Below, in pieces: positions 50,034 to 60,444 of a stretch of 64,000 nucleotides of DNA (the stretch's first letter is position 1; each line of letters begins with the position of its first letter). This DNA comes from an uncultured Candidatus Rokubacteria bacterium (lineage in GTDB: Bacteria; Methylomirabilota; Methylomirabilia; Rokubacteriales; DASRDR01), in assembly GCA_963805625.1 (NCBI GenBank), contig CAWDVE010000010.1, positions 1,024,001 to 1,088,000 on the forward strand, in the 5' to 3' direction. The notes under the pieces were generated by a model. That model was not told the origin of the DNA and made no database searches. It was given only the letters and a program-made list of their open reading frames with translations. Both the position numbers and the translations under genes were made by a program.

Positions 50034-50045
50034 TTTCAAACTCCG

Positions 50046-50233
50046 GGGTCAGACCCCGATTTTGGCGTTCGGCACCGAGGTATCCAGTCTCACACTTGGG
50101 GGCCTGACCCCGGTTTTGGTTTCCCTCGGGGTCAGGCCTTGACTTCCCTACACTTCCCGACGCAACGCGAGATGCATGGAAATCAATTGCCTGACCCCGA
50201 GCGAGCCTCGATCAACGCCGGCGCTTCCGTATC
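50046..50233. repeat. Direct repeat copy 1 (REP/REPIN cluster plus duplicated 3' end of the 176-aa gene)
   Basis: Aligns with 50736-50924 at about 690-bp offset; contains GGGTCAGACCC palindrome and GGGGTCAGG...CCTGACCCC inverted arms. Confidence 0.92.
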
Positions 50234-50613
50234 ATCGCCGGCGTGACCGAGCTTGTGATGCCCACTCCGAGGCTCACCTCGAAGAGGGCGTTGCGTGCCG
50301 CGGACTGCTCGGCCACACCCGCGACGGTCTTCTGGTCCTCCGTAACCGCGATGAACCTGCCGTTGGCGTCGGGCCCGACGCGCTGGCCGCTGGTCACGGC
50401 GTCGCCGGCGAGGCATCTGTACGTGCCGATCACGCCGATGTTGCCCGAGTCCCCGTCACGGATGTCCTCGAGCGCCACGCCGTAGAGCACGTCGGTGTCT
50501 GCGGCGCAGGGCGCGATCCCGCCATCCGCGGAGAGCTTCACGGCGAAGCCCTGCTTGATTGTGGAGCCCGTCGTGTTCTTCTTCCGCTGCGTCAGGACCA
50601 GGAACTCTGCCAT
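50212..50613 (-). CDS. Phage capsid cement/decoration-like protein (DUF2190-like) with chimeric C-terminus
   Basis: GVALED..DG, V.G.....AG.AV..G..V..DA.G...., AGVA pattern; SD CAGGAG; last six codons lie inside repeat copy 1. Confidence 0.7.
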   Translation of the reverse strand: MAEFLVLTQRKKNTTGSTIKQGFAVKLSADGGIAPCAADTDVLYGVALEDIRDGDSGNIGVIGTYRCLAGDAVTSGQRVGPDANGRFIAVTEDQKTVAGVAEQSAARNALFEVSLGVGITSSVTPAMIRKRRR

Positions 50614-50655
50614 GGTGGTTTCTCCTGTTTGCTCCGGGAGTTAGCGGCGCACGCC

Positions 50656-50735
50656 TCAGTGGGCCGCGCTCAGGTTCACGAAGGGCCCCTCGCGCTTCGC
50701 CTCACACGCGAGCTCGAAGACGGTGTCGTAGTCGA
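50656..50735 (-). pseudogene. 3' fragment of the phage gene preceding the cement gene (possibly protease/scaffold)
   Basis: LDYDTVFELACEAKREGPFVNLSAAH* cut exactly at the REP palindrome; identity inferred only from phage head gene order. Confidence 0.4.
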
Positions 50736-50924
50736 GGGTCAGACCCTGATTTTGGCGTTCGGCACCGAGGTATCCAGTCTCAAACTCGGGGTCTAGCCCC
50801 GGTTTTGGTTTCCCTCGGGGTCGGCCTTGACTTCCGTACACTTCGCGACACGCGACGCGAGATGCATGGAAATCAACGCCTGACCCCGAGCCGGGGCTTC
50901 GATCAGCGCAGGCGATTCCGCATC
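50736..50924. repeat. Direct repeat copy 2
   Basis: Same unit as 50046-50233; overlaps the stop and last six codons of the 50903-51433 gene. Confidence 0.92.
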
Positions 50925-51433
50925 GACACGTCGGCTTGTGACACAACCTGGGAACGGAACTGTTCCTGAGAGCGGAACTGTTCCTGGGATCTCGACGCCG
51001 AGGAGAACGTCGCCTCGATCAGGATGTCGTTGAGTGTCCCGGAGCAGGGGTCCAGCCGCAGCAACACGTCATCCTTGTCGTAGTCCCAAAACATGACCCC
51101 CGTCTCCCAGAAGACGTTCCGTGCGACCAGGCCGGTTTCGTCCATCGTGGACGGGCCATGGGCCACGGTCCCGGCTATGGCGTTCGTGACAGGAGTCCCG
51201 TCACCGTGCACGAGGAAGATGGCCGGTCTCGGCAGGTTGTAGAAGCTGCCCTCGAAGGTGAAGGCGTAGATCCGAGCCAGCTTCGGCTTGTCAGAGCCGG
51301 CGAACTTGAGCTGTTTGAGGAGGAAGCCGCTATCGCCCTTACCCGTCCCATACGACGACGAGCTCAGCGTCACGTCGTCCAGCTTTCGACCATACAGCTT
51401 GACACTCGATTCGCTCAGTAGGGTCTCTGCCAT
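50903..51433 (-). CDS. Hypothetical protein with (RSQEQF)n C-terminal tail; candidate YcaO/TfuA substrate
   Basis: Strong SD GGGAGG; globular-looking first ~145 aa, then SRSQEQFRSQEQFRSQVVSQADVSMRNRLR; last gene of the operon. Confidence 0.85.
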   Translation of the reverse strand: MAETLLSESSVKLYGRKLDDVTLSSSSYGTGKGDSGFLLKQLKFAGSDKPKLARIYAFTFEGSFYNLPRPAIFLVHGDGTPVTNAIAGTVAHGPSTMDETGLVARNVFWETGVMFWDYDKDDVLLRLDPCSGTLNDILIEATFSSASRSQEQFRSQEQFRSQVVSQADVSMRNRLR

Positions 51434-51469
51434 GTCACACCTCCCTCAGCGTGTCCGCGATTGTGTCGG

Positions 51470-52744
51470 TCAGGGTGATCGCACAATTCCACCGCGGTCG
51501 CGGCGCGATGGGGCGAGCGACCTGGCGATGGGGCCGGGCCGAATCTCGCGCCAGGCGAAGCTCTCCCAGATGAGCCGCGCGAACCTGCCTCCCGTCAGGT
51601 AGCGGTCAACAGCTAACAATGCGTCGAGGACGTCAAAGTAATTGAGGTAGAGCGGCGACAGCCGTCGCCATACGTGCGCGAGCCCAGTTCCGAGATAGTC
51701 ACGCGTCTGCTGGAGCACCACCTTAAACGCTTCATGCCGGCCGTCGTAGGCAGCGGCGAACCGAGCCTCGATCTCTGGGTCGTCCACGGTGACTCCCGAG
51801 ACCCGGCCCGACGCGCGGTCCAGGTCGGCGCCGATGAGCCCAGCGTCGACGAGGAACTGCTGGTACACGTCAACGAAGATGTCGAAGATGGCACCCGTCA
51901 GCGGCTGAGACAGATCGTGGAGCGCGCACGAGATGTTCTCGACTCTGGAGACGTCTTCCACGTCAGACATGCACAGATCGTTGTCGGCGATCCGGATCTG
52001 GGCGGTCTCCGACAGTTCGCCGATACGGTTCAGCTCGCTCAGGTAATAGAGGTTGCCGGCGGAGCGTCGGAGAACGTGATCGAGCACCGCATGAAAGTGC
52101 AGGCATCCCACAAGGGCAACCAGGTCGGCGAAAGACTCGTGAAAACCGAAGAATTGATCGGTCCGAGCGTCCGGCGGGGGGGTTCCGACTTCCGAATAGA
52201 TCAGGAGGTGCCCCACCTCGTGGGCGAGCACGTCGAAGTTCTGCCAGTGGAGGCGCGGCACACCTCGCTCGTCCAGAGCATATCCAACCTCGATGAAGCC
52301 GAACCCGGACTGGGCATTCGCCCAGTCGATGTAGGGTATGAGCTCGAGGCGATTGTGGGTTCGTCGGAAATGCCACTCGATCCGGTGGCCAGCGTAGGCC
52401 TCCCAGATGTCCAGGACGCGCCGAACCGTCGCGTACATGTGTGCGGACCGGAATTCGGGACTGTCGACCTCCAGATGGTCGAAGTGCCCATCCGGGCCGG
52501 ACAAGGTGGGCGGAAAGGCGGGGCCGACGTATGGCGGCAAGTAGGGGAAATCGTAGGGACCGGGCTTTCCGATCGCGTCGACCACGTACATGCGCTCATC
52601 GGCGGGACCCGGCGCGATCGTCCCCGGTGCTCGAGCGATCCACACCCTCTCCGGCTCACGGAACGCCGCGAGCGCAGGGTCTTGCGCGAATAGCCAGAAT
52701 CGGGTGCCGCGTCCGAGGGTGATCGGGTCCCAGTGAGAGGTCAC
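51470..52744 (-). CDS. Cytoplasmic gluzincin metallopeptidase (M4/M36-like)
   Basis: AHEVGH...GFHESFAD zinc motif, WANA; no signal peptide; starts 3 nt after the TfuA stop. Confidence 0.8.
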   Translation of the reverse strand: MTSHWDPITLGRGTRFWLFAQDPALAAFREPERVWIARAPGTIAPGPADERMYVVDAIGKPGPYDFPYLPPYVGPAFPPTLSGPDGHFDHLEVDSPEFRSAHMYATVRRVLDIWEAYAGHRIEWHFRRTHNRLELIPYIDWANAQSGFGFIEVGYALDERGVPRLHWQNFDVLAHEVGHLLIYSEVGTPPPDARTDQFFGFHESFADLVALVGCLHFHAVLDHVLRRSAGNLYYLSELNRIGELSETAQIRIADNDLCMSDVEDVSRVENISCALHDLSQPLTGAIFDIFVDVYQQFLVDAGLIGADLDRASGRVSGVTVDDPEIEARFAAAYDGRHEAFKVVLQQTRDYLGTGLAHVWRRLSPLYLNYFDVLDALLAVDRYLTGGRFARLIWESFAWREIRPGPIARSLAPSRRDRGGIVRSP

Positions 52745-52747
52745 GCC

Positions 52748-54124
52748 TCACTCCTCGGGGTTGCGCGTGATACCGTCGGGCGTGTCGCCCCGCGTCACGT
52801 GGATCCATTCACGCCAGAGCGCCCGGTAGAACGACCCCGTGTCGGGGAAGCCGATGTCCACCGCGTGCTGCGCGATGTCATCGGGTACCGGGACGCCGAG
52901 GCGTTTCTCGAAGTACCAGAGCGTCAGCTCGAACTTCGTGCGCTCGTCGAGCTGATCCTCGACGGGGTCCGCTCCGGCCCGCGCGCGCCGCTTCATCCGA
53001 GCCCGCGCCGCGTAGCGCGTGTAGTCACCCCGGACGCGGAGATCATCCAGGAGATGGGCCTCGGCTCGTGGTCGGGCCAGCGCCTCCAGCTGCTCGATCC
53101 GCGCCTCCTCGTCGATCAGCCGGCCAAAGCTGGCGGGCGTGAGGTCGTTCTCTGCCAACCAGCGGTCGAGCGCTCCGCCGCCGAACAGGCCTAGGCGGCG
53201 CCGCAGTCTCGCAGCCGCCCGACGCCGAGCCTCATCGCTGGGCGCGAGCCCCTCCGACTCGCACTCTCGCAGCGTCGCCATCCGCATCAACCCCGCCCGT
53301 CTGGCCTCCACGTAGGCCCGGCCGTCCAGACGAAGCTCGTCGAGCAGCATTTCTGGCTCGAGCTCCAGTCGCTCGAAGTCCTGGGTGGCCCGGTTCCACA
53401 TCGCGCTCGCCTGGAACACGTATTCGACCCGAGCCGGCGGAGGATCGCCGACGAGAAAGTCCCTCATGGTCGTCAACATGGCAAGCGCGTCCAGCCGCTT
53501 CTGGTTGATAGACCCAGTCGGTAGCCAAGCGCGAAGCGCGTCGAGGTCCGTGACCGCGAGACCATGCTTGGCGCCGCAGGCCAGAAGCCGCTGGTACGAA
53601 CGATCGGGATAGAAGAGCTCCTTCGCGAGCCGGACGAGCATATCCCGGATGGTCGCCGAGACGACCCCCGCCTCCTGGGCTGATGCTAGCGTGCATCGGA
53701 TGTTGACCATGGCTTCGGAGAGGGGAACGAAGCCAACCTCGGCCGCACCGTGAACCACTGCGACCTCGTCGTCGTCTTCGAACGCCTCTGCCTGATAGGG
53801 CGCGAGGCTCCCGTCGCGATAGGCCTCGAAGATCCGGCCTATCCCCTTCATGCCGAATGCCGCGAGCTCGGCCGCTCGCAGAGCACCCATGCTTGCGCTC
53901 CCGAAGACATGGACACCCTGGGCCATCGCCCACAGAATTTCCTTGTGCCAGACGGATGGAACCTGCTGGAAATAGCCGTCGATGATGCCCAGGGCACGAG
54001 GTCGATGATGCGCGACCGCCCGATACACGTCTCCCTGCTGCGCCGGAGGCAGATAGACGGCATCCAGCACAGACCTCGCATCCGATACAGGGAGCGTGGG
54101 TCCGGTGAATACGCAGGTCGTCAT
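52748..54124 (-). CDS. tfuA: TfuA-like protein with about 200-aa C-terminal extension
   Basis: VFTGPTL, PPAQQGD, IIDGYF, VWHKEI, SMGALRAAEL, DDDEVAVVH, LSEAMVNIR motifs; ATGA overlap with ycaO. Confidence 0.95.
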   Translation of the reverse strand: MTTCVFTGPTLPVSDARSVLDAVYLPPAQQGDVYRAVAHHRPRALGIIDGYFQQVPSVWHKEILWAMAQGVHVFGSASMGALRAAELAAFGMKGIGRIFEAYRDGSLAPYQAEAFEDDDEVAVVHGAAEVGFVPLSEAMVNIRCTLASAQEAGVVSATIRDMLVRLAKELFYPDRSYQRLLACGAKHGLAVTDLDALRAWLPTGSINQKRLDALAMLTTMRDFLVGDPPPARVEYVFQASAMWNRATQDFERLELEPEMLLDELRLDGRAYVEARRAGLMRMATLRECESEGLAPSDEARRRAAARLRRRLGLFGGGALDRWLAENDLTPASFGRLIDEEARIEQLEALARPRAEAHLLDDLRVRGDYTRYAARARMKRRARAGADPVEDQLDERTKFELTLWYFEKRLGVPVPDDIAQHAVDIGFPDTGSFYRALWREWIHVTRGDTPDGITRNPEE

Positions 54125-55473
54125 GCCAGCCGACCACTCACGGCGCGGGCCCGCGGCCCTGGCACGTACTTGCCGCGCTCGCCGTCGTCGAGTCCCTCCA
54201 GGCCGGGGATTAGGACCCGAACGACCGGTATGCCCAGCTCCGGCTTGGTCAAGTTCACCGCGACGACTTGCCGAATCCCCACGGCGCGGAGATGTTCCAG
54301 AGCCCAGGTCACATCCTCGTCGAGACTATCCTGGTCGCGAGTGGGCACGTCGTGAAAGTCGCCGGTGGCCGTGTCGGCCGCCATCAGGCTGCGACATTCC
54401 TTCAGGCGTCGAGCGCGCTGCGCCGGCGTGTAGTCCTCTGCCCAGAAGTCGTCGCGGGAGCCAGCGATGTAGGTGGTGCGAGCCTGAGCGGCCTCGGTCA
54501 GCGCGCGGAGCAGAGCGATACCGCGCGCGGGATGGCAGCCGGCGGCGAACTCAGGGTCGGCGCCATCGTCGTCCCGCCCGAGCACCAGGCAGGTGAATGA
54601 CGCGATGCCGACATCGGAGGTGGTGTCCCACACCTTCACGGCAATGTCGGCGCGCGCGAACTGGTCGAGCACCCAGCGACATGCGTCGTCGTTGACAGTC
54701 TCGAGGTCCAGCGCGCGCCGTGACCTCCGGGGCGTGTGCTTCCACAACGCGCTCGCGTCGCGCTCGATCACCTCGTGTATCCCATGGCTGATGGCTTCGA
54801 GCATGTGGTTGCCTGATGCGAGCCCGTTCGTGTTAGCGAGAAAGCACCCGTGCGCGGGGCCACGAGGCATCGTGTAGTCCGTATGCACTAATTCGTATGG
54901 CACCCAGCACGGAGACTGGCTGATGAGATCTTCGCCCTCGATCCACAACAATGGCTCATCGTCGGTATAGGAGCTCGTCTTGGCGCGTGGGAGTGCGGCC
55001 ACGTCGATCAGGGGATGAGTGCGCCCGAGCTCGCGATACGTCCCTAGCTTGAGAGAGGAGGTGATGGTCTCGGCGTGAAAAGTCTCGACCGCTTCCATCA
55101 GCCCGGATGCCTTGGCCGCGGCCAGGTCCAGACCCTTGCCTTGGGACACGGCGATGGAACGAGAGTTCGGTCGGCAGACCATGACAACCGGGACACCGAT
55201 CCGATCGAGGCCGGTGATGTTGGCGACGCGGGTTATGCCCATCTGGGAGGCAAGCGGCCCGATTCGTTTCAGCGTATCCGCCGGGGCCACCGTTCGGTGG
55301 GTCCCGAGACGATGGGCCTTGACGGCTTCAGCGGTCGGTGTCGCGGCAGTTGAGCAGCCCCCTCCGAAGTGACCGGTCCCGTCCCCCTCCGCGCGCTGGG
55401 CACCACGAACGGCAGTCGTGGACGACCGGGGCAGGCCCGCTGCGGACTGGGGGCTCAAGTCAGGATCGTCCAT
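54121..55473 (-). CDS. ycaO: YcaO-family enzyme, TfuA-associated (thioamide-forming) type
   Basis: GITRVANITGLD, SQGKG, SGLMEAVE, NTNGLASGN, EVIERDA, RALTEAAQAR, VLIPGLE; lacks the terminal PxP motif of azoline-forming YcaOs. Confidence 0.95.
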   Translation of the reverse strand: MDDPDLSPQSAAGLPRSSTTAVRGAQRAEGDGTGHFGGGCSTAATPTAEAVKAHRLGTHRTVAPADTLKRIGPLASQMGITRVANITGLDRIGVPVVMVCRPNSRSIAVSQGKGLDLAAAKASGLMEAVETFHAETITSSLKLGTYRELGRTHPLIDVAALPRAKTSSYTDDEPLLWIEGEDLISQSPCWVPYELVHTDYTMPRGPAHGCFLANTNGLASGNHMLEAISHGIHEVIERDASALWKHTPRRSRRALDLETVNDDACRWVLDQFARADIAVKVWDTTSDVGIASFTCLVLGRDDDGADPEFAAGCHPARGIALLRALTEAAQARTTYIAGSRDDFWAEDYTPAQRARRLKECRSLMAADTATGDFHDVPTRDQDSLDEDVTWALEHLRAVGIRQVVAVNLTKPELGIPVVRVLIPGLEGLDDGERGKYVPGPRARAVSGRLA

Positions 55474-55486
55474 TGCGCCCCGCTCA

Positions 55487-58400
55487 CTAGGAGGTCGTCC
55501 CGGGTGCGGGAGTGGGAGCCAGCTCTTCAAGCAGCGCGCGTGCCTCGAGTAGGTCGACCGTGTCGAAACCCTCCCGGAACCACTCATAGACGGGGACCAG
55601 CAACCCACGTGCAGCAGCGTGTCGATCTCGTCGACGCTCGAGCATAGCCAGACTCATGGCCGCTCTCAGTTCGAGCGCTCGGGCCTTCTGCTGGCAGGCA
55701 ACTGACAGAGCCCTACGGAACTCGGCTTCCGCCTCGCTGACCCGCGGAGGCGACAACGCCAGGAGGGCCTCCCCTCGGCTCCGGTGGAGCTCCGCAGTCC
55801 AGTAGCACAGCCCCATCTGTTCCGTCTCGGCGAAAGCCTCGTCGAGCATGTCCAAGGCCAGCTCCGGCTGGCCTGCCTTGACGCACGCGGTGGCGAGCAT
55901 CTCCCTCAGGATCGGGAAGTCCTCGCCAGTGACCATGGCCTTCAGCTCGTCGAGTCCTTGACGCATATATTCGATGCCGCGCTCGGGCTCGCCCAGCTCG
56001 GCCAGCGCCCAGCCCTGGAACACCGTGCCCTTGACCCGATAGGCCGGGAATCCGTGGGCCTCCGAGTACTGGATGAGCTCATCGGCGCGGCCCTGGACGG
56101 TCCAGGCGTCGCGGCGATAGCGGTGCAGTAGCAGGCTCATGTCGAGCGCGTGTACGAGCGAGCCCGCATGCGCGAGACGGCGCGCCCACACCATCGCCTC
56201 CCCGCCCGCCGCGAGCGCCTGATCCGGGAACCCGAGCAGCCACAGCGAGAACGCGCGCTCCCCCGCCCCGCACACCTTCGGGTCGTGCCCGCCGTAGACC
56301 GCCACGTGGGCGCGGTAGTTTCCGGCGTCATACAGGCGCACGCCCTCGCGGACGTGCTCACAGCACTCTTCGTGCCGGCCCAGGTGGAACAGACTGGCCC
56401 AGAGACAGTGGTGGGCTTGAAGACTGAGGCCAGGGTCGCCCAGCCCGTCGGCCAGTGTCAGCAGTTTCTGCCCTATCTCGAGTCCCGTCTCGAAGCGTTC
56501 GGAGATACGCCATGCACCCCACATCGCGGTGAAGTGCTGGGGGGAGTCGGGGAGAGAAGAACAAAGCTCCAAGGCCCGGGCATAGGTCTGCGCCACCTCG
56601 ATCGTCCGCGGCCCTTTCGTGTTGATGAGCACGGGGCCCAGCGTGAGGAGCAGGTCGAGCTCCCCCCGTCGACGTTCGGTCGTTTCAGGAAGAGTGGCGA
56701 GGAGATCCAGCCCCTTCTTCAGGTGGGAGATCGCCTCCACGTTCGCTGACCGCTCACTCGCGCGTCGTCCGGCCAAGTGCCGATAGTGGAGTGCCTTCGG
56801 ACCGAGATGGGCCTCCGTGCAATGATGCGCGACCAGTTCAGGGCTCGCCTCCAGCGTCTCCGGAAACTGGGTCTCCAGCACCTCGGCGATCCGCGCATGG
56901 AGCGCCTGGCGCTGGGTGAGCAGGAGGCTTCCGTAGGCCGCGTCCTGGACGAGCGCGTGCTTGAACGAGTAGGTCGCACGGGGCGCTGTACCGTCGCACA
57001 GTATGAGCTGCGCGTCGACGAGCTCGTCGAGCGCCGCGTCCAGCTCGGTGTCTGGCATAGACGCTACCGCGGTTAGCAGCTCGTACGAGAATTGGCGTCC
57101 GATCGCGCTCCCGATCTGGGCAACCTTCGGGCCGGAAGCGAGCTGGTCAAGGCGCGCCATTAGTGAATCGTGGAGCGTCGCCGGGATCGCGAGAGGCGGA
57201 ATGGCGCCGGTGAGCTCGTACCGGTCTTCGTGTTCCTGGACCAGCCCGGATTCGAGCACCGTCTTCGTCAGCTCCTCGATGAATAGCGGCACGCCGTCCG
57301 TCTTGGTGACGATGTGCTGCAGGATCTGCTCGGGCAGGGACTTTCCGTTGGCCACCCGCCGCGCGATCTCGGCCGCTTCCGTCGGACTCAGCCGGTTCAA
57401 GGTGCAGCGCGTGACATGGGGCTGCCTGGGCCATTTTGGCGCGTAGCTCGGTCGGCAGGTGATGACCGCCAGCATCCGCTGGCTCCCGGCACGCTCCACG
57501 AGGACATCGAGCCACTCCTGCGAGGTGGGGTCGATCCAGTGCACGTCCTCGAACACCAGGAGCAAACCCGGCTCCTTGGCGAGACCCTCGACCAGGCTCT
57601 GAAGTGCGGCCAGTGTCTGTTCTCGTCGACGCTGCTGCGTCACGCCGACTGGCGCATAGCGATCTCCCGTCGAGACAGAGACGAGAGGGGCGAGCAACGG
57701 GACCATCGTCTCAACAGGGTGGCCGCACTGAGCAAGCAGCGCCTCGAGCCTCGCCAGCTTCCGCTCCATCGAGTCCTCACGCTCGAACTCGGCGAGGCGT
57801 TCCAATGCGGTACCGAGCGGGTAGAGTGCACTGTTTGCGTGATGTGGCGAACACTGGAGCAAGACGACTCGCTGCGGCTCTTGCGCGATCTGCTCTCCGA
57901 GATTCTGGATGATTCGAGACTTTCCGATCCCCGGCTCGCCGCTCAGCAGCACCACTTGCCCCTGACCGCTCATGGCATCGTTCCATCGCCGCATGAGAAG
58001 ACCGAATTCTTCCTTCCGGCCGACGAGCGGCGTGAGGCCGGCAGGGTGCGCGGCTTCGAATCGGCTCAGGGTCTCGTTCAGGTGCATGACCCGCCAAACC
58101 CGAATCGGGCGGGACATGCCCTTCAGGGTAGCGAAGCCAAGGTCCTCGCATACGAATCGGTCCCCGACCAGATGACGTGTTTCGTCGGTGATTACCACGG
58201 CGTTCGGGTCCGCCGCGGCCTGCAGGCGCGCCGCGAGATTCAGGGTCTCCCCGACCAGACCGGCCTCCTCCCCCGGGCGCCCGCCAGGAGAATCACCCGC
58301 GACCACCAAACCCGTCGCGATTCCCACGCGAACCGCCAGCTGGATGTTCGCAGCACCGATCGGCACCGGCCGAAGCTCCCTCACGGCTTCCACGATCCCA

Positions 58401-58876
58401 AGACCCGCCCGCACGGCACGCTCAGCATCATCTTCGTGCGCCATCGGATACCCGAAGTTCGCGAGAATGCCGTCACCGAGATACTGTGCGACGTGACCAC
58501 CAAACCGCCGGACTACGGAGGAGCAGGTGGTCAAATAGGTTCGGATGAGCCCCCGGAGGTCCTCTGGATCCAACTGGCCCGATATGGAAGTGGACCCGAC
58601 AAGGTCGGCAAACAGGACGGTCACACGTCTTCGCTCGGCCTGACGCGCCCCTGGGGAGACGCTGCGTGGATTCTGGGTAGCCGTGGACGGCGACCGATCC
58701 GGGGGCATGGGTGAGCCAAGGCCGTGAGCGAGCACGGCGCCACATTCCCCGCAGAACTCGAAGTGCGTTGGGTTCTTGAAGCCGCAGGCGGGACATGCGT
58801 TCCTCAGCAGCCGGCCACACCCGCCACAGAACCTCGACGAATCCGGATTGTCGAACGCACAGGCGGCGCACTTCAA
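55487..58876 (-). CDS. Double zinc ribbon / class III nucleotide cyclase / STAND-type AAA ATPase / TPR protein
   Basis: Four CxxC motifs, VLFADLVGS, YLGDG, NLAARLQ, Walker A GEPGIGKS, Walker B FEDVHW, FKHALVQD; TTG start with SD downstream of the promoter. Confidence 0.93.
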   Translation of the reverse strand: MKCAACAFDNPDSSRFCGGCGRLLRNACPACGFKNPTHFEFCGECGAVLAHGLGSPMPPDRSPSTATQNPRSVSPGARQAERRRVTVLFADLVGSTSISGQLDPEDLRGLIRTYLTTCSSVVRRFGGHVAQYLGDGILANFGYPMAHEDDAERAVRAGLGIVEAVRELRPVPIGAANIQLAVRVGIATGLVVAGDSPGGRPGEEAGLVGETLNLAARLQAAADPNAVVITDETRHLVGDRFVCEDLGFATLKGMSRPIRVWRVMHLNETLSRFEAAHPAGLTPLVGRKEEFGLLMRRWNDAMSGQGQVVLLSGEPGIGKSRIIQNLGEQIAQEPQRVVLLQCSPHHANSALYPLGTALERLAEFEREDSMERKLARLEALLAQCGHPVETMVPLLAPLVSVSTGDRYAPVGVTQQRRREQTLAALQSLVEGLAKEPGLLLVFEDVHWIDPTSQEWLDVLVERAGSQRMLAVITCRPSYAPKWPRQPHVTRCTLNRLSPTEAAEIARRVANGKSLPEQILQHIVTKTDGVPLFIEELTKTVLESGLVQEHEDRYELTGAIPPLAIPATLHDSLMARLDQLASGPKVAQIGSAIGRQFSYELLTAVASMPDTELDAALDELVDAQLILCDGTAPRATYSFKHALVQDAAYGSLLLTQRQALHARIAEVLETQFPETLEASPELVAHHCTEAHLGPKALHYRHLAGRRASERSANVEAISHLKKGLDLLATLPETTERRRGELDLLLTLGPVLINTKGPRTIEVAQTYARALELCSSLPDSPQHFTAMWGAWRISERFETGLEIGQKLLTLADGLGDPGLSLQAHHCLWASLFHLGRHEECCEHVREGVRLYDAGNYRAHVAVYGGHDPKVCGAGERAFSLWLLGFPDQALAAGGEAMVWARRLAHAGSLVHALDMSLLLHRYRRDAWTVQGRADELIQYSEAHGFPAYRVKGTVFQGWALAELGEPERGIEYMRQGLDELKAMVTGEDFPILREMLATACVKAGQPELALDMLDEAFAETEQMGLCYWTAELHRSRGEALLALSPPRVSEAEAEFRRALSVACQQKARALELRAAMSLAMLERRRDRHAAARGLLVPVYEWFREGFDTVDLLEARALLEELAPTPAPGTTS

Positions 58877-58924
58877 GCCGAACCCCCTTCTTCGGGCAGC
58901 CGGCCTACTGAGGAGGTGGCGGTG

Positions 58925-58953
58925 ACAGTAAGGCAGCCACGGCAGCTTGTCAA
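58925..58953 (-). promoter_or_regulatory. Sigma70 promoter of the cyclase-ycaO-tfuA operon
   Basis: TTGACA-N17-TACTGT on the minus strand. Confidence 0.75.
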
Positions 58954-59123
58954 GTCGACGTCTCACTATCGTCGCACGTTCCCATCGCCGTTTGGGATCA
59001 ATGGTGTCACGTCGACCCCGAAGACTGATGCGACTGCGACCGATGATTCATGAATCAAAAAGGCCTCCAATGCGATCCCTGCTCATCCCAGCAATCCGCC
59101 GCGCCAAGCCCCAGCGTATGAAA

Positions 59124-59139
59124 GTCAAAGTCTGACCCC
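59124..59139. repeat. Orphan REP arm at the island boundary
   Basis: GTCAAAGTCTGACCCC, identical to the core of the REPIN arm in 60555-60582; contains the stop codon of the HtpX-like gene. Confidence 0.8.
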
Positions 59140-60444
59140 CATCCGCTCGATGCGGGCGAGACGGCGCTTGAGCGTGGGGTGTAGGCCCATGAGTAGGCCC
59201 TCGCGCTCGGTGAACGTCCCGCGCTGGGCCCGCTGCCCGGTGGTCTCCACGATGAAAAGGTGCGCGACCCCCTCGCCGCCCGGGATCACCGCGCCGGTCT
59301 CTCCCAGGTGCTGGAGCCCGCGATAGAGCCCAGTCGGGTTGCGGGTGAGCTGGACCGCCGTCGCGTCGGCGAGGTAGCGCCGGCTCCGCCAGAGCAGGCC
59401 CACCGGTAGGCTCGCGAACAGTAGGAGGAAGCCCGTGGCGGCCGTGGCGAAGGCGAGCAGCGCGAGGAGCGGCGGGCAGATGCGGACGAGGATGCTCCCC
59501 AGCCGGCCGAAGTACTCGCGACCGAGTCCTGCCACCGGGTCGTCCCCGCCGCCCCCGGCCCCGAAGCGCTGCCGGTGCTCTCTGAGAAGCTGGATCAGCG
59601 CTCGGGCCCGTTCGGCCCGCGACTCCGGCGACTGGAATGTGCTCCGCAAGGGAAACGTGAACCACCGCCAGGCGACCCGCCGCGGAAGCCGCGCGAACGG
59701 AGCCAGGATGACGACGATCAGAAGCTCGAGCACATAGAGGAGCGAGTGAATCTGGGCCGCGCCTCGGAGATCCCCGTTCCCAATCGAGCCGATCAGATGA
59801 GCGAGGAGGCCCTCGGTCTCCTCGCGATCGAACTCGTCCAGGAGCCGCCGGCCGACGACGACGTAGCTCTCCGTCAGGTCCGTCCCGACGGCCGCGGCGT
59901 TCGCCACCTTGGCGTCGAGGAGACGCACCTCGGGTGCCGGGATCCCGGCGGCGATCGCCATCTCCTGGACCACGTTGACGAGCTGACGCTCCTCCAGGTC
60001 CCCGGCCACAGGTGGTCGGGCGCCGATCGCGAGGAGAGTGTGCCCCACCCCTGCCGCGCGCCACACCGACCGCACCGTCAGCCAGCACACGAGCGGGAGG
60101 AGGAAGCCGATCACCCAGACCGCGTCGCCGTCGCCCGGCAGGAGGCTCGGCAGCCGGCCCACGACCCCGAGCGGGGCCAGGCCCACGTCCCAGCTGGGGT
60201 GCGCGAGACCGGCTGTCGCAGGGCTCAGGAGCGCGAGCGCGCCGATGCCGAGGCAGAGCACCGCGGGAATGAAGACGAGGGCGAAGAGGACCAGGAACAC
60301 GTTGGCGACGAAGCCCACCGCGGACACGAAGCCGCACCCGCCCACGACCAGCGCGTAGGCGAGCGTCAGACGCCACGTCGCCCGGCGGTTCCGGGCCTGG
60401 AACTCGAAGAAAGGCGTGCGCTCGGTCGGGCGGGTCTCGGCCAT
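59125..60444 (-). CDS. HtpX/M48-like membrane protein with degenerate zinc site
   Basis: FFEFQARNRR, LVNVVQEMAIAAGIP, ANAAA, YLADATAVQLTRNP, HP..KR motifs; HEXXH position reads HLIGS. Confidence 0.85.
   Translation of the reverse strand: MAETRPTERTPFFEFQARNRRATWRLTLAYALVVGGCGFVSAVGFVANVFLVLFALVFIPAVLCLGIGALALLSPATAGLAHPSWDVGLAPLGVVGRLPSLLPGDGDAVWVIGFLLPLVCWLTVRSVWRAAGVGHTLLAIGARPPVAGDLEERQLVNVVQEMAIAAGIPAPEVRLLDAKVANAAAVGTDLTESYVVVGRRLLDEFDREETEGLLAHLIGSIGNGDLRGAAQIHSLLYVLELLIVVILAPFARLPRRVAWRWFTFPLRSTFQSPESRAERARALIQLLREHRQRFGAGGGGDDPVAGLGREYFGRLGSILVRICPPLLALLAFATAATGFLLLFASLPVGLLWRSRRYLADATAVQLTRNPTGLYRGLQHLGETGAVIPGGEGVAHLFIVETTGQRAQRGTFTEREGLLMGLHPTLKRRLARIERMGVRL

Follow-up and report, generated by a model that had tools for sequence, protein, structure and literature searches.

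A phage cement gene behind a YcaO-TfuA operon: a probable single capture at REP-containing repeats and a tentative role as capsid decoy

GTAs, tailocins and encapsulins are domesticated phage structural genes, and Tab is reportedly a defence that acts by interfering with virion assembly. Interference with virion assembly is also the mode of the Tai defence, as presented in the available part of PMC11364771. Decoration (cement) proteins of the beta-tulip type bind capsids mainly via an N-terminal arm, and the spike of phi29 gp8.5 is formed by its outward-directed C-terminus, according to the accessible portion of PMC7602432. Cleavage and strand transfer by TnpA-REP are described in the available text of PMC8266576, and that text does not describe the capture of foreign coding DNA. 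Searches of the open-access literature found no lone cement gene kept by a host, and literature searches for TfuA in Rokubacteria, or for TfuA with trifolitoxin and YcaO in Rhizobium, found nothing.

In this study, we examine a locus in the window, by which we mean the whole 64,000-nucleotide stretch analysed, from an uncultured Candidatus Rokubacteria bacterium (genome G000). A gene for a phage cement protein lies there between two direct repeats, behind a YcaO-TfuA operon (Table 1). The explanation that best accounts for the locus as a whole, with a probability of roughly one in three, is that the insert was captured once and long ago, that its cement gene has been kept by the host, and that the encoded protein may serve as a decoy for phage capsids.

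Table 1. Features of the locus, with positions counted from the first nucleotide of the window
Feature	Coordinates	Strand	Remarks
Downstream repeat copy	50046..50233		two REP/REPIN-like doublets + a second copy of the final ~8 codons and stop of the 176-aa gene
Phage cement (decoration) protein gene	50212..50613	-	133 aa, PF09956, predicted beta-tulip
Phage-derived segment	50245..50733	-	aligns with the protease end and cement gene in the head module of a Mu-like prophage (67% identity, 346 of 520 columns)
Shine-Dalgarno (SD) AGGAG of cement gene	50622..50626	-	kept in all three host lineages
Protease remnant	50656..50733	-	3' end (last 25 codons + stop) of a head maturation protease gene of Mu-like type; start absent
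Upstream repeat copy	50736..50924		native 3' end of the 176-aa gene + two REP doublets; junction lies at the GGGTCAGACCC palindrome
176-aa candidate RiPP-type precursor	50903..51433	-	folded ~140-aa N-part + tandem-repeat tail; no Pfam/NCBIfam/PHROG family
424-aa likely zinc metallopeptidase	51470..52744	-	HEVGH...E motif, read by eye; no family match
TfuA-like protein	52748..54124	-	
YcaO protein	54121..55608	-	
Zinc-ribbon/class III cyclase/AAA_16/TPR protein	55487..58966	-	like TIGR03903 TOMM kinase-cyclase, below cut-off
Single REP arm, far end of island	59120..59140		

The operon (cyclase-YcaO-TfuA-peptidase-176-aa gene) forms an island of ~9 kb, with a GC content of 61-68% as against 72% for the flanking genes, inserted with a dehydrogenase gene on one side and a 439-aa gene on the other. 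The island as delimited here (window 50034-59140) has REP arms at both ends, and several relatives carry only a REP doublet at the site. All 40 homologues of the 176-aa protein share its ~140-aa N-part; tails of tandem 4-7-residue repeats occur in 32 of them, and 21 end in R[HN]RL[RK]. In two Paracoccus records a homologue immediately follows ycaO-tfuA, and in Rhizobium (two loci examined of 49) one follows a cyclase and adjoins a homologue of the 424-aa peptidase, with no adjacent ycaO-tfuA. The 176-aa protein is likely a RiPP-type precursor, and its earlier designation as the substrate gene of the YcaO operon is plausible.

Several further observations concern this precursor family. Its members, here and at loci such as L037:8989-9567 and L039:5733-6230, carry repeat tails that include SQEQFR, SGAQARI, GANAR, SRSGG and RGMS, are tied to YcaO-TfuA and/or an HExxH peptidase with a class III cyclase across distant phyla, and lack any Pfam, NCBIfam, PHROG or PDB match; the family likely represents a new class of RiPP precursor. 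Searches with the precursor fold returned no PDB entry above Z 3.4 and no BFVD entry at E<0.15, and matches in the Atlas stayed under 0.9. Between this genome and G002 (L033, G002:C125), identity is ~48-49% for the precursor and 71-80% for the peptidase, TfuA, YcaO and cyclase, which suggests that the precursor changes fast or is swapped. The precursor gene has another copy, truncated at its 5' end and bearing five RSDLAA repeats, at G000:C21:330377-330670 (L034); no operon accompanies this copy, and an integrase fragment lies ~5.5 kb away. On Rhizobium plasmids a 110-aa gene of no Pfam family stands directly behind the precursor homologue (L037:9600-9932; L041:8613-8951).

The cement protein belongs to PF09956 (DUF2190; E 7e-10, 39.6 bits against a gathering cut-off of 24) and is the only member in this genome. 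Its predicted structure (pLDDT 89.8) matched the base of phi29 gp8.5 in Foldseek (E 4e-6) and an HFTV1 chain with a TMq of 0.76, as well as the cement proteins of TW1 and Pam3. The profile and structure comparisons that a first-pass annotation had proposed for this gene thus place it above the family cut-off, with a predicted beta-tulip decoration fold. The same annotation had described about 500 bp enclosing the end of one gene and a DUF2190-like cement gene with its SD, and this holds, the gene end corresponding to the final 25 codons of the Mu-like head protease. The SD stands 8 nt before the cement ATG. An ORF of 96 aa running through the upstream repeat into the protease remnant was rejected as a gene, having no family match and being broken in the relative L026.

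The enclosed DNA points to a type of donor. The 489-bp insert matches the head module of a Mu-like prophage from end to end, at 67% identity, through the protease end, the spacer with its SD and the cement gene. This prophage was found in a Polyangiaceae genome and, as the same prophage, on an IMG/VR contig; it encodes portal, Mu-like protease, cement, major capsid and sheath proteins. Single-protein and alignment scans of IMG/VR, which are insensitive, had found no close relative there, and a later DNA pattern located it. When nine prophage proteins were compared with this genome by tblastn, only the protease end and the cement gene matched, both at this locus; the donor-type major capsid protein had no match in the genome, and the locus holds no capsid gene. 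Tyrosine recombinases (PF00589) gave 24 matches in the genome and none in the window, in agreement with the earlier statement that no integrase or other phage gene is present. The phage cement protein ends GITTSV*, and homology of the insert runs to the codon before that stop; the window copy has lost the stop and reads on into the duplicated end of the host gene, which supplies its last ~10 residues (TPAMIRKRRR). In the donor-type prophage (L027:8364-8376) the cement stop codon lies within GGTCTGACCC, which resembles the host REP palindrome; this likeness may have guided the junction, or may be chance.

The two repeats flanking the insert had been described as diverged direct repeats, and their alignment gives 88.0% identity across 192 columns. 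Each is composed of two inverted doublets of GGGGTCAG...CTGACCCC arms and the last ~8 codons of the 176-aa gene. The arms are part of a genome-wide family (34 exact 19-nt arms; 27 clusters of at least two 8-mers), and host REP DNA makes up 65% of the repeat. No third full copy of the ~190-bp unit exists in the 7.27-Mb genome. The repeat folds strongly (z -4.1), as expected for REP arms; no Rfam family came near its cut-off, and no sigma-70-like promoter was found. Recounting reproduced the 20/24-nt match across the two stop-codon regions, in the same frame, with the cement ORF ending IRKRRR* and the 176-aa gene ending MRNRLR*. One junction falls directly on the GGGTCAGACCC palindrome, as had been noted; the opposite one lies at a 3-nt GTC microhomology. 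Since the phage homology begins only at 50245, host-derived sequence of the downstream (left) repeat probably extends to ~50244. The layout is real, because near-identical contigs from runs of different studies span both junctions (X1, X3, X4 and X7 at 50233; X1, X3 and X4 at 50735); an assembly artefact is thereby ruled out. X1 may be close to the source sample. The two copies within this genome differ by 7.3% and orthologous downstream copies by 18%, which is suggestive of concerted evolution of the two repeats, an effect inseparable from a slow G000 branch.

The GGGGTCAG arms also flank all ten loci of Y1 transposase (PF01797), which occur in 9 of 15 genomes of the genus. In this genome the Y1 (RAYT-type) transposase is truncated, between inward-facing GGGGTCAG arms (L035:1355-1790; G000:C4 ~136500-136900), and intact Y1 transposases of ~310 aa with a DnaA-C-like HTH are present in relatives of the genus.

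Relatives of the locus were found on three metagenome contigs, of which L024 and L025 are the same sequence type. These two carry the 176-aa gene, a shortened repeat, an identical left junction, the protease remnant, the SD and a cement gene of 65% identity. On L026, the end of the 176-aa gene and a repeat that has decayed precede the remnant, here frameshifted; a cement gene of 58% identity comes next, and beyond it stand the downstream duplicate and the dehydrogenase. The upstream repeat and the protease remnant have there suffered deletion and frameshift, the remnant being both shortened and frameshifted, while the cement gene retains its SD, its start and an open frame, and the two indels within it are in frame. 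The nine close cement homologues, for three of which the genomic context is known (not for P0004-P0008 or P0050), form one group in a quick 146-row tree (SH-aLRT 95). With the tails trimmed, a 30-row tree supports the group at 99/93, with one long-branch row falling inside it, and an AU test for a single clade gave p=0.22. Among 251 genomes of the phylum, 3 had the 176-aa gene and 1 had this cement gene; PF09956 is otherwise represented there by two genes, which adjoin capsid genes in ordinary head modules.

Sites free of the insert were found in G002, which is of the same genus, and G015. Among 12 same-genus loci, 11 lack the island at the site, and G002 has the island without phage insert or REP arms. 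The empty site of G002, a distant relative, retains the gene end and has no REP cluster.

Because the same insert stands behind the same gene in diverged lineages, and on the basis of the shared junctions and the tree, the insert very probably represents a single old capture. Between G000 and L026, 17% of same-residue codons differ silently in the cement gene and 34% in the dehydrogenase. An active REP/RAYT system that still captures phage DNA between repeats, as a CRISPR-like repeat-spacer-repeat memory, would account for arms of the family that flanks every Y1 locus and for a junction at the palindrome, yet we give it almost no credence: all three lineages with known context hold the same single insert, the genome has only two copies of the repeat unit, 8 runs showed neither an alternative insert nor an excision joint, and the Y1 transposase of this genome is truncated. 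Of the earlier proposal of REP/RAYT-mediated capture, the ongoing form therefore fails, the same insert being found in relatives; the system may have had a part in the original event, as the repeats are arms of a RAYT-linked family.

In the proposed course of events, the insert would have been captured once, likely through a template switch or a RAYT-stimulated illegitimate joint at REP hairpins, and this joint would have re-copied the end of the 176-aa gene. We consider such a template-switch or REP-linked origin, as opposed to att integration, probable. The junctions abut coding DNA of the head genes and a re-copied host segment follows, so that one template-switch-like event is simpler than an integration and two exact deletions. 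A RAYT nick may have begun the capture, because the arms belong to a RAYT family. The junction mechanisms themselves are indistinguishable from sequence alone.

The first-pass annotation had also offered the repeats as attL and attR, left by a prophage whose target was the 3' end of the 176-aa gene; later deletion would then have reduced the prophage to 489 bp. Integrative elements restore the 3' end of their target gene, and the direct repeats do so here, in frame and with 20/24 nt; the donor type, moreover, is a temperate phage found as a prophage. This scar is nonetheless poorly supported and very unlikely. It requires two deletions that end exactly at the repeats and inside head genes, the insert is wholly head-module DNA with no integration module or PF00589 integrase in the window, 65% of the repeat is host REP DNA, and the empty site of G002 offers no REP cluster or att-like copy as attB, a point weakened by the distance of that relative.

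The 121-nt leader (50614-50735; protease remnant and spacer) shows only 4 differences between G000 and L024; divergence is higher in the repeats (7-18%) and in the cement gene (codon positions 1-2, 22%). Constraint or recent recombination may account for this.

On balance, the evidence leans toward selection on the cement gene in the host, that is, toward domestication, and the gene is likely kept as the translated last gene of the island. In two deeper host pairs its omega is 0.45 (p=0.01) and 0.40 (p=0.002), so that it lies below 1 in two of three pairs. For G000-L024, the value after GC3 correction (GY94-F3x4) is 0.84, not different from 1; an NG86 dN/dS of 2.0 for this pair was rejected as a GC3 artefact. 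The omega of the neighbouring dehydrogenase is 0.04, and that of the cement gene is 10-20x higher. Variation among sites tracks conservation in the family (Spearman 0.28, p=0.002, 118 sites). Residues 1-30 differ most, with 43% identity between G000 and L024 and 24 non-silent against 3 silent changes. A comparison of M1a with M2a, made on three sequences only, indicated positive selection (p=3e-4), falling to p=0.04-0.18 without 23 gap-near or N-terminal columns; the controls (dehydrogenase, precursor) gave no significant signal. As the positive-selection signal is fragile, relaxed constraint explains the fast N-arm equally well.

The alternative is that the cement gene is a relic under little or no selection, hitchhiking in an island that moves horizontally. 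On this view the reading frame would stay open because stop codons are rare in GC-rich DNA and because protein searches, the source of the homologues, are biased toward intact genes and detect only intact copies. The omega of the G000-L024 pair and an F1x4 M0 omega of 0.85-1.03 fit such a relic, as does a silent divergence in the G000-L026 pair half that of the dehydrogenase, by which the cassette may be younger than it looks. In three RNA-labelled runs no contig covered the cement gene, an absence that proves nothing; X19 fell on the precursor gene (5 differences in 214 nt) and X20 over the upstream repeat. Against a relic, omega is significantly below 1 in two pairs, sitewise conservation follows the fold, and the cement ORF, SD and start persist while their neighbours decay. 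We regard a relic as unlikely, if a serious contender, and retain domestication as the preferred reading of the gene's history.

The C-terminal tail bears on the same question. A basic tail of 20-55 residues and net charge +5 to +11 is present in seven of eight close homologues, the eighth of which appears partial. Among 138 other PF09956 members, drawn from 147 listed family matches with long proteins excluded, none reaches +4 or 18 residues. The tails of the close homologues are built from different DNA: that of G000 is the host gene end, that of L026 a separate insertion, that of P0004 an Ala/Lys-rich run, and that of L024 a REP arm read after deletion of the stop. In L024, four substitutions recoded the REP arm codons GGG, GGC and AAT to Arg, Arg and Lys. 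When stop-free frames of matching length are drawn at random, 0.5-37% reach tail-like charge with Arg-rich ends, a point in favour of a relic; fewer than 0.5% of draws also contain the observed Lys counts, and basic tails that contain Lys or were re-coded arose from separate DNA, which speaks against one. Counting against selection, the first basic tail was a ready-made product of the fusion, the end of the host gene being basic already.

For the function of a kept cement gene, the proposal is that the protein would bind the capsids of related phages and would decorate them with positively charged tails, spoiling assembly or spread. A decoy that would bind and spoil the heads of donor-type phages is the most specific reading: in beta-tulip proteins the N-arm binds capsids, here the N-terminal 30 residues change fastest, and the outward-running C-terminus gained a polycation. 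Taken over all cases, we hold an anti-phage decoy to be the job of the cement gene only tentatively, and relaxed constraint on an unused N-arm fits as well. A fuller version is still more speculative: under expression from a sensor-controlled thio-RiPP island, the host decoration protein would ride onto the progeny heads of related phages via its fast N-arm and paint them with polycationic tails, which would have been assembled anew on several occasions out of REP junk and gene ends, leaving the virions sticky or defective. No PADLOC model matched the cement protein, precursor, peptidase, TfuA or YcaO, and the sensor matched only generic cyclase/ATPase models (PycC/mad8).

A role in the peptide chemistry of the island, itself doubtful, is nearly as likely as a decoy. 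The basic-tailed beta-tulip would then be a carrier, scaffold, self-protection partner, or binder of nucleic acid or another polyanion, and its gene would fill the slot of the unrelated 110-aa gene behind the Rhizobium precursor. The cement gene is co-oriented and last in the island, the Rhizobium loci have a small gene right behind the precursor homologue, the same evidence from selection and tails applies, and in a protein that binds no capsid the capsid-binding arm would be expected to lose constraint. Conversely, no such gene accompanies the operon or precursor in G002, G015 or either Paracoccus locus, and the 110-aa protein of Rhizobium has no Pfam match or shown likeness to the cement protein. 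The earlier suggestion of a domesticated decoy or chimeric substrate divides accordingly: its domestication part is favoured by retention, purifying selection on the fold and the repeated basic tails, and its chimeric-substrate part is not. The fusion acquired a terminal basic motif only; the repeated core of the precursor is absent from it, and the MRHRLR-type end is not kept in homologues, so that the cement fusion is unlikely to be a YcaO substrate. A weak search for longer fused forms of the cement protein found none.

If the protein does bind capsids, the decoy would represent a defence both new and simple, in which a captured decoration protein paints virions. If the gene is a relic only, what remains is a templated insertion of an ordinary kind and modest interest. 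The record of domestication is unusually complete, in that the donor-type module, an empty site, both junctions and the decaying flanks can all be read, together with a tail recoded from a non-coding REP arm to Arg/Lys codons. The repeat-tailed precursor family merits study whichever reading holds.

Compared with described systems, the island resembles the YcaO-TfuA clusters for thioamidated RiPPs in the available part of PMC8120280, and the TIGR03903 kinase/cyclase TOMM clusters, in its adjacent ycaO and tfuA, its cyclase-ATPase-TPR sensor and its small repeat-tailed protein downstream. It differs in that the candidate precursor has a folded N-part of ~140 aa and no Pfam/NCBIfam model, and in that the Rhizobium homologue of the precursor occurs with peptidase and cyclase without adjacent YcaO-TfuA. 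The available text of PMC8120280 mentions neither cyclase nor repeats, and its supplements may list such clusters. Like the REP/REPIN-RAYT elements in the accessible part of PMC8266576, the arms are palindromic and extragenic, form inverted doublets, number dozens per genome and flank a Y1 HUH transposase; they begin GGGGTCAG, whereas REP groups 2 and 3 in that text have a GTAG tetranucleotide. The cement protein itself shares a sequence match above the cut-off and a predicted fold with the PF09956 proteins (phi29 gp8.5 base, HFTV1, TW1, Pam3; BcepMu gp35-like), and in the donor-type module, as here, the cement gene follows the protease. The window copy, by contrast, has no capsid gene adjacent or detectable in the genome, has lost its own stop and bears a basic tail absent from the 138 other members. 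Relative to Tab and, within the available part of its source, Tai, the proposed mode is alike, in that progeny virions would be spoiled rather than cells killed early; those systems are experimentally shown, act on tails and are encoded by prophages or satellites, whereas here the target would be the head and the gene is itself that of a virion protein. As in GTAs, tailocins and encapsulins, a virion gene is kept in the host chromosome outside a prophage, but in this instance it is a single accessory gene of the capsid surface, with no particle-forming partners, appended to a RiPP-type operon.
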